DNA of 24,387 bases from Cellvibrionaceae bacterium (GTDB lineage: Bacteria > Pseudomonadota > Gammaproteobacteria > Pseudomonadales > Cellvibrionaceae): the NCBI GenBank assembly GCA_035338675.1, contig DAOQGS010000002.1:1-24387 (forward strand). Direction: 5' to 3'. The notes beneath the pieces are model-generated. The model saw only the letters and a list, made by a program, of their open reading frames with translations, ran no database searches and was not told the origin of the DNA. The translations under genes were made by a program, and so were the position numbers. Below, in pieces: positions 2,125 through 5,050 of the stretch; position 1 is the first letter of the stretch; the number at the start of each line of letters is the position of its first letter.

Positions 2125-3736
2125 ACCGATGGTTACACCCTTCCAAAAACTCTCGCCGGTGTGGTTAATCCCCCTGGTAGCGCTGATCATTGCCCTGTGG
2201 CTGGCGATTAATTCCTGGCAGGAAAAAGGCCAGGAAATTGAAATCCTTTTAAACGCGGCGGCGGGCATCGAAGTGGGTAAAACCCAGGTGCGCCTAAAAG
2301 ATGTGCCGGTGGGCAAGGTCTCCAAAATGCAGCTCACCGCCGATTTAAGCAAAGTGCGTTTAAAAGTCACCCTAGAGCGGGAAATTGCCAAACACCTAAG
2401 TGTGAATACGCGTTTTTGGCTGGTGAGCCCGCGTATTAGTGTGGCGGGGGTTTCCAACCTCGGCACCCTAGTATCTGGTGTATATATCGTGATGGACCCT
2501 GGTGAACCCGGCGCCTTTTCCACCAATTTTGACGGCTTACCGGAGCCACCCGCCATAGAATCCAGCGTCAAAGGCACCACCTTTTTATTGCGCGCCGACA
2601 GCCTAGATTCGGTGGATATAGGCTCGCCGGTGTATTACCGGCAATTAAAAGTCGGCGAAGTCACCAGCTATAAACTGAGCGAAACTGGCGAAGCGGTGGA
2701 AATTCGCGTGTTTGTGCAGGCCCCCCACGATAAATTAATCACCAGCCACAGCCGTTTTTGGAATGTCAGCGGGTTTGATATCAACCTGGGGCCAGACGGT
2801 GTAAAGGCGCAAATGGCCTCGTTAGTGTCGTTTTTAGGCGGCGGTATTTCCTTTGAAAATATCAACGCCTATGAAAACGCGGAACCTGCCAAAGCCAATC
2901 AAACCTTTTTTCTCTACGCCGATAAAGAATCGGTACTGGAAGGCCGCTTTAGCGCCAAATTTTATTATCTGCTGAAATTCTCCCACTCCGTGCGCGGCTT
3001 AAAAGCCGGTGCGCCGGTGGAATTTCGCGGCATTAAAGTGGGCGAAGTGGTGGATGTGGTGTTATCCAGCATTGAAAACCAAGATAAATCCCTGCTGGTG
3101 TATATCACCTTAGAGCCTGAGCGTTTTAAAGCGGATTTAGAACCCAAGCGGGAAATTATCGACGGCATGGTGGCCAAAATGGTTGACCAGGGCCTGCGCG
3201 GCCAATTGCGCACCGACAGCCTATTAACCGGCAGCCTGTATGTGGATTTAGCCTTTGAAAACAAACAAAAACCCGGCAAATTAACCGTCACCGACAACCA
3301 TGCGGAAATTCCCACCCTCGATGACCCGCTGGATCAGCTCACCAAACAGTTAAGTGAAATTACCGATAAATTTAACCGTATTCCCAGCGATAAAATTGGC
3401 GCCGACCTGGCTAAATCCATGGCGAGCTTGGCCAATATAATGAATACCCTGGATAAGAATAATACCGCTGGCAAACTCGATGGCACCCTGGGCAATCTTG
3501 AAAAAGCCACCCACGACATGGACAAAACAGTAGCCGAGGCCACCCAAACCCTCAGCCAATTGCGGGTGACTTTAAAAAGCCTGGATGCCACTTTTGCGCC
3601 GGATTCCCAATTGCATTTTGAAGTAATTGAAATGCTCAATTCCGTTACCGAAGCGTCCGATTCGTTTGATCGCATTGCCGATGAATTAAAACGCTATCCC
3701 AACGCCTTAATATTCGGAGGCAAGAAAAAAGAATGA
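2111..3736 (+). CDS. pqiB: PqiB, three-MCE-domain intermembrane transport protein
   Basis: N-terminal SPVWLIPLVALII anchor; three MCE repeats (GIEVGKTQVRLKDVPVGKV, SVDIGSPVYYRQLKVGEV, GLKAGAPVEFRGIKVGEV); helical C-terminus ending YPNALIFG. Start may be 2099 or 2111. Confidence 0.93.
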   Translation: MNLPKPMVTPFQKLSPVWLIPLVALIIALWLAINSWQEKGQEIEILLNAAAGIEVGKTQVRLKDVPVGKVSKMQLTADLSKVRLKVTLEREIAKHLSVNTRFWLVSPRISVAGVSNLGTLVSGVYIVMDPGEPGAFSTNFDGLPEPPAIESSVKGTTFLLRADSLDSVDIGSPVYYRQLKVGEVTSYKLSETGEAVEIRVFVQAPHDKLITSHSRFWNVSGFDINLGPDGVKAQMASLVSFLGGGISFENINAYENAEPAKANQTFFLYADKESVLEGRFSAKFYYLLKFSHSVRGLKAGAPVEFRGIKVGEVVDVVLSSIENQDKSLLVYITLEPERFKADLEPKREIIDGMVAKMVDQGLRGQLRTDSLLTGSLYVDLAFENKQKPGKLTVTDNHAEIPTLDDPLDQLTKQLSEITDKFNRIPSDKIGADLAKSMASLANIMNTLDKNNTAGKLDGTLGNLEKATHDMDKTVAEATQTLSQLRVTLKSLDATFAPDSQLHFEVIEMLNSVTEASDSFDRIADELKRYPNALIFGGKKKE

Positions 3737-4308
3737 TCGCCCGCGGCCTGTTATTCAGTCTGTTGCTGTGGGGGCTATGTGCCTGCAGTCAGCAGACCCA
3801 TTATTACACCCTGCACCACACCAAGGGCCCCAAAGCGCCCCTGGGCAGCTACACATTTAGCTTGGGCATAGGCCCGGTATTCCTACCGGAAAGCCACAAC
3901 CAACCGGGGGTGGTGAGCCTGACCGAAGGCCAGGAAGTCACTGTGGCCCAGTACCATATTTGGGCCGGTTATTTAAATCAGTCGGTGACGCGGGTGCTGG
4001 CCGATAATTTATCCCTGCTGCTCGGCGCCGATACCGTCTGGCCCTTTCCCTGGGATAACCGCATGCGCCCTGTGCGCCAGGTGCGGGTAATTATTGAAGA
4101 AATGGCCGGGCAGCGAGGCAAAACAGTGGCCCTACAGGCTAAATATATTCTCACCGCCGACAACGGCGAGCGCACCCTGGCCGCCGAGCGCACCCGCATT
4201 GAAGTGCCCTGCGCTGGCGATTCCTACGAAGCCTATGTGGCGGCTATTAACCAGGCGCTCAATCAATTATCCGAACAGATGGCCAAAACCCTGATCGCCA
4301 AACAATAG
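3733..4308 (+). CDS. pqiC: PqiC-like outer-membrane lipoprotein
   Basis: ATGA overlap with pqiB; lipobox-like LCAC then S...YYTL; IGPVFLP and HIWAGYL...RVLADNLS pattern; position after pqiAB. Confidence 0.85.
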   Translation: MIARGLLFSLLLWGLCACSQQTHYYTLHHTKGPKAPLGSYTFSLGIGPVFLPESHNQPGVVSLTEGQEVTVAQYHIWAGYLNQSVTRVLADNLSLLLGADTVWPFPWDNRMRPVRQVRVIIEEMAGQRGKTVALQAKYILTADNGERTLAAERTRIEVPCAGDSYEAYVAAINQALNQLSEQMAKTLIAKQ

Positions 4309-4355
4309 GCTTTTAGCCGCCGTAACTTACAGGTATCTACCCCACTATTCCTATG

Positions 4356-4834
4356 TTATGTGAAATAGATGCATGAAGATTCTATATGTTGAAAACCATC
4401 CGTACTTCGGGAAAATTGTGAAAGACAAATTCCTTAGTGAATTTCATGTAACTATAGTGCCAAGCATTAAGTCCGCCACTGAAGCAGTAAATCAATCGAG
4501 TTTTGATATAGCGTTAGTGGATTACGACTTGGATGATGGCAAAGGGGATGAATTCATCGCCTACTTAATAAGAGCAGGTATTGATTTACCTTGTATAGCA
4601 GTTTCATCCCATGAAAATGGGAATTCAGCTCTAGTTAAAGCTGGAGCAGTAAGTGTTTGCAGTAAAATGCATTTCTCAAAAATTGCTTCTGTGGTGGGTA
4701 AAATTAATGTGTAAAGTAAAACAATCACATAACAAGCGTGTCCATTTGACACTTTGGCCTACGTTGCGCTTTGGGGTGGCTGCGCCACTTTACCCCAAAG
4801 CTCCACTACGGCCAAAGTGCAAATGACACGGGCG
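4356..4834 (+). mobile_element. Solitary integron gene cassette (479 bp) integrated at G^TT (4355/4356)
   Basis: Left core GTTATGTGA (4355-4363) is the exact reverse complement of TCACATAAC (4725-4733) at the start of the attC. The cassette holds one ORF, is AT-rich and ends in an attC. Confidence 0.9.
4373..4714 (+). CDS. Stand-alone response-regulator receiver (CheY-like) protein; cassette cargo
   Basis: KILYVEN (beta1), LVDYDL with Asp50, AVSS with Ser78, Lys98. Hand count gives about 37% GC over 4381-4710, clearly lower than the flanking genes. Confidence 0.85.
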   Translation: MKILYVENHPYFGKIVKDKFLSEFHVTIVPSIKSATEAVNQSSFDIALVDYDLDDGKGDEFIAYLIRAGIDLPCIAVSSHENGNSALVKAGAVSVCSKMHFSKIASVVGKINV

Positions 4835-4840
4835 TTAAAT
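4727..4840 (+). mobile_element. attC recombination site (114 bp)
   Basis: R'' ACATAAC 4727-4733; 5-nt spacer; L'' TGTCCATT 4739-4746; L' AATGACA 4822-4828; 5-nt spacer; R' GTTAAAT 4834-4840 (fits GTTRRRY). Arm GTGTC(C)ATTTG(A)CACTTTGGCC pairs with GGCCAAAGTGCAAATGACAC, leaving an unpaired C and A (G and T on the bottom strand). Inner stem CTTTGGGGT/ACCCCAAAG. Confidence 0.93.
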
Positions 4841-5050
4841 AGAATTTTAATTATCCCTCTGCTGCTTAGCGCCTATGGCTGCGACTCCAGATCCCAGCCC
4901 CAGAGAGAGCTGACTAGGCCCGCAGCGGAGGTGAAAGCGGTCATTCCCAGCGCCATAGACGCAGCCGCGCCGGGGGCGGCGCAAGCGGTGAGTGCCGAGG
5001 ATATTAAACAGGCCCAGGAGGCCGCCGCCGATAGCCCCCAGCACGAATAA
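4823..5050 (+). CDS. Small Ala/Gln-rich probable lipoprotein; original start displaced by the cassette, now starting from an ATG inside attC
   Basis: MTRALNRILIIPLLLSAYGC resembles a signal peptide II followed by a low-complexity tail. Removing the cassette gives ATG|TTA AAT AGA (MLNRIL...) in frame. Confidence 0.6.
   Translation: MTRALNRILIIPLLLSAYGCDSRSQPQRELTRPAAEVKAVIPSAIDAAAPGAAQAVSAEDIKQAQEAAADSPQHE

Follow-up and report, generated by a model that had tools for sequence, protein, structure and literature searches.

Does a host start codon, caught at the edge of an inserted gene cassette, drive translation of the cassette gene, or is the short ORF that joins the two an accident of the insertion? 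The question is raised by a locus in the window analysed here, which is a stretch of 24,387 nucleotides from a Cellvibrionaceae bacterium (contig DAOQGS010000002.1, positions 1 to 24,387 of the forward strand). At this locus, an ATG in the host DNA opens a seven-codon ORF that runs into a cassette and terminates on the start codon of the cassette gene. The initial annotation regarded the ATG as a captured host start and proposed that cassette 5' ends may be built in such a way that, on insertion at an ATG^TT site, they become coupled to such a start.

Structure of the locus and of the junction

The locus lies downstream of pqiA, pqiB and pqiC and comprises the following features.

3733..4308, plus strand: pqiC-type lipoprotein gene (ABC_trans_aux), the last gene of pqiABC (Pfam PF03886, E 6.5e-37)
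4353..4355, plus strand: ancestral ATG of the host small lipoprotein gene, split from codon 2 (MLNK orthologue; conserved gene after pqiC)
4353..4376, plus strand: junction mini-ORF, MLCEIDA and stop (host ATG, six cassette codons and TGA; direct reading, no SD upstream)
4356..4834, plus strand: integron gene cassette of 479 bp, a lone cassette or SALIN (core complementarity, attC model and GC profile; single copy in the genome)
4373..4714, plus strand: single-domain receiver (CheY-like) gene, 113 aa (Pfam PF00072 Response_reg, E 3e-9)
4725..4840, no strand given: attC recombination site (R'' ACATAAC ... R' GTTAAAT; crossover after G4834)
4823..5050, plus strand: host lipoprotein ORF as now read (MTRALNRIL..., 75 aa), from an in-frame ATG inside attC; called in this form (P0121) in several assemblies

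Read directly from 4350, the junction is cct ATG TTA TGT GAA ATA GAT GCA TGA AGA. The mini-ORF starts in host DNA (ATG 4353), spans the crossover between 4355 and 4356, and ends at an in-phase stop that is supplied by the cassette near its start. The stop, TGA 4374-4376, overlaps the ATG of the receiver gene (4373-4375) as ATGA, and the seven-codon ORF described earlier was therefore confirmed by direct reading in both its extent and its overlap. The 5'UTR of the cassette is 17 nt long, and none of the three frames stays open beyond the receiver start (stops TGA 4361, TAG 4366 and TGA 4374). There are four ATGs within 23 nt around the junction. One ATG in the UTR forms an ATG-TGA start-stop at 4358-4363, inside the core site, and a second, at 4369, opens another 7-codon ORF (4369-4392) in a different frame.

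Identification of the element as a lone cassette

The left boundary of the cassette falls between G4355 and T4356, and the right junction reads GGGCG^TTAAAT at 4834/4835. The 5' core of the cassette, GTTATGTGA, is complementary over 9 nt to the R'' sequence, TCACATAAC, at 4725-4733, as expected of a cassette once circular. The GC content of the cassette is about 38-41%, compared with 58-61% in the neighbourhood; along the profile, values of about 0.59-0.61 give way to 0.375-0.41 over the stretch from roughly 4300 to 4800. An attC is recognised as an imperfect hairpin with extrahelical bases and with cores of the form RYYYAAC (R'') and GTTRRRY (R'), for which the window site has ACATAAC and GTTAAAT. 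When folded as DNA, the bottom strand of attC reaches -35.5 kcal/mol (z = -7.2 versus shuffled sequences) and carries two single-base bulges. A covariance model that we built ourselves from 25 attC copies in the arrays of related genomes scores the window attC at 134 bits and has no other match in the window. In an Rfam scan of the window, no family reached its gathering score and attC was not matched.

BLAST found numerous copies of the attC sequence in further genomes of the bacterial family, and the model matches 123 of the 151 genomes of this family. In one of them (G023), a full intI, which scores 444 bits to TIGR02249 and is over the cut-off, lies about 500 bp from where a cassette array starts; an integrase is also present in one genome of the same genus. 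The possibility that attC is a REP- or MITE-like repeat was rejected, because its array copies occur at cassette spacing with R''/R' cores, and one array is located beside intI. In five complete genomes of the family (G156, G069, G092, G113 and G164; loci L045-L065), this attC family is found in many separate chromosomal regions. Nearly every 8-kb attC region sampled in these genomes is itself an array, which indicates multiple or very large arrays, and G156 contains two full integrase genes.

The window genome is a MAG of 917 contigs with 95% completeness. Within these contigs, no IntI was found over the family cut-off, and no second attC was detected by BLAST. A tblastn search of the same genome with the IntI of a relative yielded only a tyrosine recombinase with 27% identity. 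As to a donor array, the cassette pattern had 0 matches in genome contigs, and the pattern of the cassette 5' end had 0 matches in metagenome contigs. The element is a SALIN, a lone cassette sitting at a G^TT site of the genome. Insertion at G^TT fits the 5'-GWT-3' consensus reported for genomic insertion sites (10.1101/2022.09.11.507474).

Capture of a host start codon

In three genomes of the same genus (G001, G002 and G004), a small lipoprotein gene lies directly 3' of pqiC, and the C-terminal half of its product is conserved. A protein search with the part located 3' of the cassette retrieved the window's own 75-aa protein (P0121) and the orthologues P0122 and P0123. The closest orthologue, P0122 (DNA locus L038; 73 aa, 64% identity), reads MLNKMVV...FGC, and its DNA starts with ATG CTA AAT AAA. 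If ATG 4353 is joined to position 4835 onward, the result is ATG TTA AAT AGA (MLNR), that is, MLNRILIIPLLLSAYGC, a lipoprotein signal peptide. Because this reconstructed N-terminus agrees with that of P0122, the insertion point can be placed precisely at the boundary of codons 1 and 2, which is a G^TT site. ATG 4353 is thus a genuine host start codon captured by cassette insertion at ATG^TT, and this part of the initial annotation is confirmed by both the MLNK orthologue and the presence of the small lipoprotein gene after pqiC in the genus. We also considered whether the 14 nt preceding ATG 4353 might be foreign DNA. This was rejected, because the intergenic lengths are similar (44 versus 49 nt) and the sequence is merely diverged.

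The split lipoprotein gene can now be read from ATG 4823 within attC, which has a weak SD (-1.7 kcal/mol). This ATG sits in the 3' arm of the hairpin stem, and most gene callers take it as the start. Among 131 attCs of the family, an ATG in the lipoprotein frame that is open to the crossover is present in 39; the corresponding numbers are 0 for frame 1 and 8 for frame 2. Therefore, the baseline for such a replacement start is roughly 30%.

The receiver gene and its start

In an alignment with seven homologues, the N-terminus of the receiver, MKIL(Y/L/F)(V/L)ENH, is invariant, which identifies 4373 as the true start of the gene. GTG 4418, from which one assembly calls a protein of 98 aa, was rejected as the start on the same grounds, namely the conserved MKIL N-terminus. 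The final A of the ATGA belongs to the conserved Lys codon, and the Met-Lys start thus dictates the TGA.

We found 306 homologues of the receiver, the best of which (excluding itself) shows 59% identity; most of them sit in operons and not in cassettes. The family motif is MKILxxENH ... DYDLDDGKGDEF ... SSH.xGN ... CSKM, with E-N in place of the acidic pair usual in the receiver pocket. Its members (loci L015 and L119-L190) are distributed over Verrucomicrobiota, Myxococcota, Planctomycetota, Armatimonadota and Gammaproteobacteria and are mostly non-cassette genes; at L015, the receiver-family gene and a 2OG-Fe(II) oxygenase gene share 4 nt.

One homologous receiver cassette was found, in a Thiotrichaceae MAG (L144; 47% identity, attC-flanked). 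Its UTR is 20 nt long, and frame 0, the frame that a host ATG^TT would impose, is closed 8 nt before the ATG. This UTR differs from that of the window cassette, so the overlap layout is not conserved with the cargo. In the same cassette (contig JADGDF010000022.1, 1120-1210), an ATG in the upstream attC opens a 10-codon ORF, MVGVTFLSE and stop, that spans the crossover and ends with a TAA immediately before the receiver ATG. The layout is attC-borne and ORF-11-like; attC-borne upstream ORFs that end at the start in this way are rare (4 cases among 131 cassettes).

Initiation signals and transcription context

The SD:anti-SD duplex was calculated at +0.9 kcal/mol for the start at 4353 and +0.4 kcal/mol for that at 4373, compared with -9.5 for pqiC and -7.1 for ppk. 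The latter of the two junction values confirms the earlier remark that the cassette gene has no clear SD. The sequence upstream of ATG 4353 is tctaccccactattcct, in which a canonical SD about 8 nt upstream is absent. The initial annotation had cautioned that the SD upstream of 4353 is weak, which was right but understated, as there is no SD at all at this position.

Between the stop of pqiC and 4353, no promoter- or terminator-like motif was found, which makes co-transcription with pqiABC the likely source of the mRNA. Of the RNA runs searched, none contains the locus. By prediction, the RNA around the starts shows no significant masking structure (z = -0.5). In bacteria, termination of ribosomes at or overlapping a start codon generally permits reinitiation. 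From these features, termination-reinitiation at the window locus appears mechanistically possible and would most likely be incidental. Since the host start has no SD, the contribution of coupling is probably modest and limited by how far the host start is used.

5' ends of cassettes in related arrays

The 5' ends were surveyed in 131 non-redundant cassettes from the arrays of related genomes (loci L020-L084), which were collected with the attC model; an earlier sample contained 50. Frame 0 was defined as the frame read from the cassette-initial TT, as imposed by a host ATG^TT. The start codons in the counts below are our own simple calls, and the cassettes, coming from related genomes, are not independent.

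The 5'UTR has a median length of 18 nt (quartiles 12 and 25), and 86 of the 131 cassettes (66%) have NTGA starts. The first stop overlaps the start as ATGA in 13, 12 and 26 of the 131 cassettes for frames 0, 1 and 2, respectively. When TRRTG overlaps and abutting stops are added, the numbers for frames 0, 1 and 2 become 17, 20 and 29, respectively. Start offsets modulo 3 are distributed as 49/47/35. In 35 of the 131 cassettes, frame 0 is the cargo's own frame, and insertion at ATG^TT would give a fusion. As in the window cassette, no frame is still open at the start in 14 of the 131.

The overlap layout itself is not improbable: given insertion at a codon boundary, about 10-13% (roughly one in eight) of comparable cassettes would have it, because the UTR is short and the start reads ATGA. 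Measured against chance, as had been proposed beforehand for this claim, the overlap is not enriched in frame 0 among the array cassettes. The general part of the initial annotation, that cassette 5' ends are arranged for coupling at ATG^TT, was therefore not upheld: frame 0 accounts for 13 of 131 cassettes against 12 and 26 in the other frames, the Met-Lys start forces the TGA, and the receiver cassette of the Thiotrichaceae MAG differs.

An SD-like 4-mer is present upstream of 13 of the 50 cassettes of the earlier sample only. This indicates that SD-independent initiation is normal for these cassettes and that the receiver gene may not need the leader. Over the three frames together, a stop that overlaps or abuts the start with the frame open from the boundary occurs in 66 of 131, a number uncorrected for composition and start-calling error. 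As far as such sequence features can tell, cassettes may generally be prone to termination-reinitiation from upstream translation.

Insertion sites of other lone cassettes

Eight left junctions (non-attC ends) of lone cassettes were compared, namely those of the window, L074, L078, L033, L105, L089, L092 and L094. The junctions were defined by an 8/8 match to the complement of R'' (7/8 for L074). The dispersed high-scoring attC copies in complete genomes were rejected as a further set of many SALINs, because most of them are inside arrays. No integrase was found in the sampled flanks of the eight junctions.

All eight junctions read NTG^TT, with CTG in five, ATG in two and TTG in one. This suggests a preference for TG^TT targets, resembling the TGWT reported for IntI2. 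With such a preference, an ATG immediately before the crossover would be a 1-in-4 event and not a 1-in-16 event. Three of the junctions also share the context CAC(T/A)(A/T)T(T/A)-N3-NTG^TT, for example cCACTATTcctATG in the window and gCACTATTgaaCTG in L105, which may mean that these chromosomal integron integrases prefer a longer target sequence.

The other ATG junction (L074) is not a gene start, as its reconstructed empty site contains a frame of 7 residues only. The survey of SALIN insertion sites that had been suggested as a check of the coupling idea yielded no second case: none of the seven other junctions is on a gene start, and only the window junction coincides with a conserved start codon. 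In a crude count for the window genome, 196 long ORFs start with ATG^TT as their first codon boundary, among 127,280 GTT sites. By the same crude count, a start-codon landing corresponds to about 0.15% of GTT sites and 0.6% of TGTT sites.

Persistence of the occupied allele

The occupied site is identical, letter for letter, in contigs from at least three independent studies conducted between 2015 and 2021 (activated-sludge and wastewater runs), and it is also present in further ENA, NCBI and Logan assemblies. The pattern of the empty-site junction had 0 matches in metagenome contigs. Likewise, the cassette-less joint was found in none of the contigs of 4 runs, where contigs hide minority alleles. 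The uninterrupted gene was seen only in the diverged orthologue P0122 (64% identity). The contig evidence is evidence for the presence of the occupied allele, not for its fixation.

Origin and possible function of the mini-ORF

We consider it probable that the mini-ORF is an incidental junction ORF, which may pass some ribosomes to the receiver gene. An integron integrase would have inserted the 479-bp cassette, consisting of the receiver gene and attC, at a genomic G^TT site of the attG type, and this site would by chance have been the boundary between codons 1 and 2 of the small lipoprotein gene downstream of pqiABC. From then on, the host ATG would read six cassette codons and stop on the TGA embedded in ATGA. 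The overlap at this locus results from the very short 5'UTR (17 nt), the Met-Lys start that spells ATGA and the lack of an earlier stop in the frame. Lacking a promoter, the cassette would share the transcript of pqiABC and the lipoprotein gene. Where initiation at the old lipoprotein start still occurs, ribosomes would terminate at the UGA, with the receiver AUG one base behind them, and could reinitiate there. Ribosomes may also enter directly at the receiver start, whose leader is A/U-rich and SD-less, as must happen for most cassettes in related arrays. The layout is not pre-designed in the cassette.

The converse of this last point, that cassette 5' ends are in general arranged so that ATG^TT insertion couples the cargo to a host start, is scarcely tenable. 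In its favour are the window locus and one array cassette (L021, 114), whose 5' end, TTATGTGAAATATGA, is very similar and has the same frame-0 overlap; however, the frame 0 counts and start offsets of the array cassettes (13/131 versus 12 and 26; 49/47/35) show no enrichment, the conserved Met-Lys start imposes the TGA, the homologous receiver cassette L144 is laid out differently, and cassettes exist behind attC sites, not behind host ATGs. It is also possible, though we lean against it, that the junction ORF is irrelevant or inhibitory and that translation of the receiver relies solely on ribosomes initiating directly, independently of an SD, at AUG 4373, a start with which AUG 4353 (20 nt upstream), the start-stop at 4358-4363 or ATG 4369 would compete. 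The presence of SD-like motifs at only 13 of 50 array cassettes, which means that direct SD-less initiation must be common, is consistent with this, as are the four ATGs within 23 nt and the absence of a stable structure that an upstream ribosome would need to unfold. However, termination beside a start codon generally allows reinitiation in bacteria. Moreover, ORF-11 and ORF-18 show reinitiation for TIR-deficient cassettes (PMC8876359).

Another explanation is that the start-codon capture was selected, that is, the insertion persisted because the host start and the junction ORF feed the receiver gene while the ATG in attC keeps the lipoprotein gene readable. Coupling would then be functionally important, but it would have been chosen after insertion and not built into cassettes. 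We regard this as unlikely, although several observations point in its direction. They include the conjunction of a start hit (about 0.15%), a frame-0 stop overlapping or abutting the start (13%, 17/131) and an in-frame ATG in attC (30%), the closure of all three frames within a 17-nt UTR, in which only 14 of 131 cassettes are alike, and the finding that the occupied allele is identical over several studies and years with no empty allele seen. The rare start hit, the in-frame replacement ATG and the sole allele seen are hints that selection filtered the insertion and that coupling might matter beyond the incidental. On the other hand, the host ATG has no SD (+0.9 kcal/mol), so that few ribosomes may be on hand, and this is a single locus picked post hoc, while seven other lone cassettes are inserted at NTG^TT sites that are not starts. 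In addition, rare alleles are hidden by contigs, which leaves fixation unproven, and the same picture would be expected if a dispensable gene had been hit by a neutral insertion. A broader form of the idea, which we find very doubtful, is that start-codon capture is a selected route to seamless operon insertion, in which ATG^TT landings in expressed genes would survive preferentially, the mini-ORF would drive the SD-less cargo, and the ATG in attC would restart the split gene. If this were true, the cassette would become a new member of the operon with the resident gene kept, and the mini-ORF would be a chromosomal analogue of ORF-11/18.

Significance

If the coupling proves functional and selected, the locus would provide a concrete route by which promoterless, SD-less cassettes reach expression outside integrons. 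It would also widen the principle of ORF-11/ORF-18 from attI to ordinary chromosomal sites and bear on the domestication of cassettes. On present evidence, the locus is of more limited value, as a clean case in nature of an attC x attG insertion that hit a start codon exactly. Our survey further provides a quantitative baseline, with short UTRs, 66% NTGA starts and 10-20% stop/start overlap per frame. Given this baseline, 'leaders' of this kind easily come about by accident, and design should not be read into them.

Comparison with known systems

Genome-inserted cassettes near resident promoters are expressed, with higher rates when the cassette has its own RBS, according to the part of the study by Loot et al. 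considered here (10.1101/2022.09.11.507474). Like the SALINs (attC x attG) described in that part, the window element has a single attC, one ORF, no integrase or attI nearby and a 5'-GWT-3' site, and expression from a resident promoter is expected. A point of difference is that its insertion site is precisely the boundary of codons 1 and 2 in a conserved gene; start-codon capture and coupling through a junction ORF are not among the subjects of the part considered.

The junction also resembles the ATGA/TGATG translational coupling found in operons, in that an upstream stop overlaps a downstream start and the downstream gene has no SD. It differs in that the upstream 'gene' is a 7-codon recombination accident with a weak initiation site and not a co-evolved partner.

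The closest parallels come from class 1 integrons (Hanau-Bercot et al. 2002, in the summary given by PMC8876359). ORF-11 is a small ORF that spans the attI1 crossover, takes its stop from the cassette core and feeds TIR-deficient cassettes by termination-reinitiation, and ORF-18 is a variant with its stop in the cassette 5'UTR (PMC8876359). In contrast to both, the recipient in the window is the start of a chromosomal lipoprotein gene downstream of pqiC (attG-type G^TT) and not attI1. ORF-11 has a GGAG 8 bp upstream and its stop within the core, at T^TAG (frame 1), whereas the window mini-ORF lacks a canonical SD and uses frame 0. Like ORF-11 as well as ORF-18, the window mini-ORF is located just 5' of a TIR-less cassette gene. 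The likeness to ORF-11 drawn in the initial annotation is apt in architecture, because the ORF begins in the recipient, spans the crossover and ends at a stop supplied by the cassette (PMC8876359).
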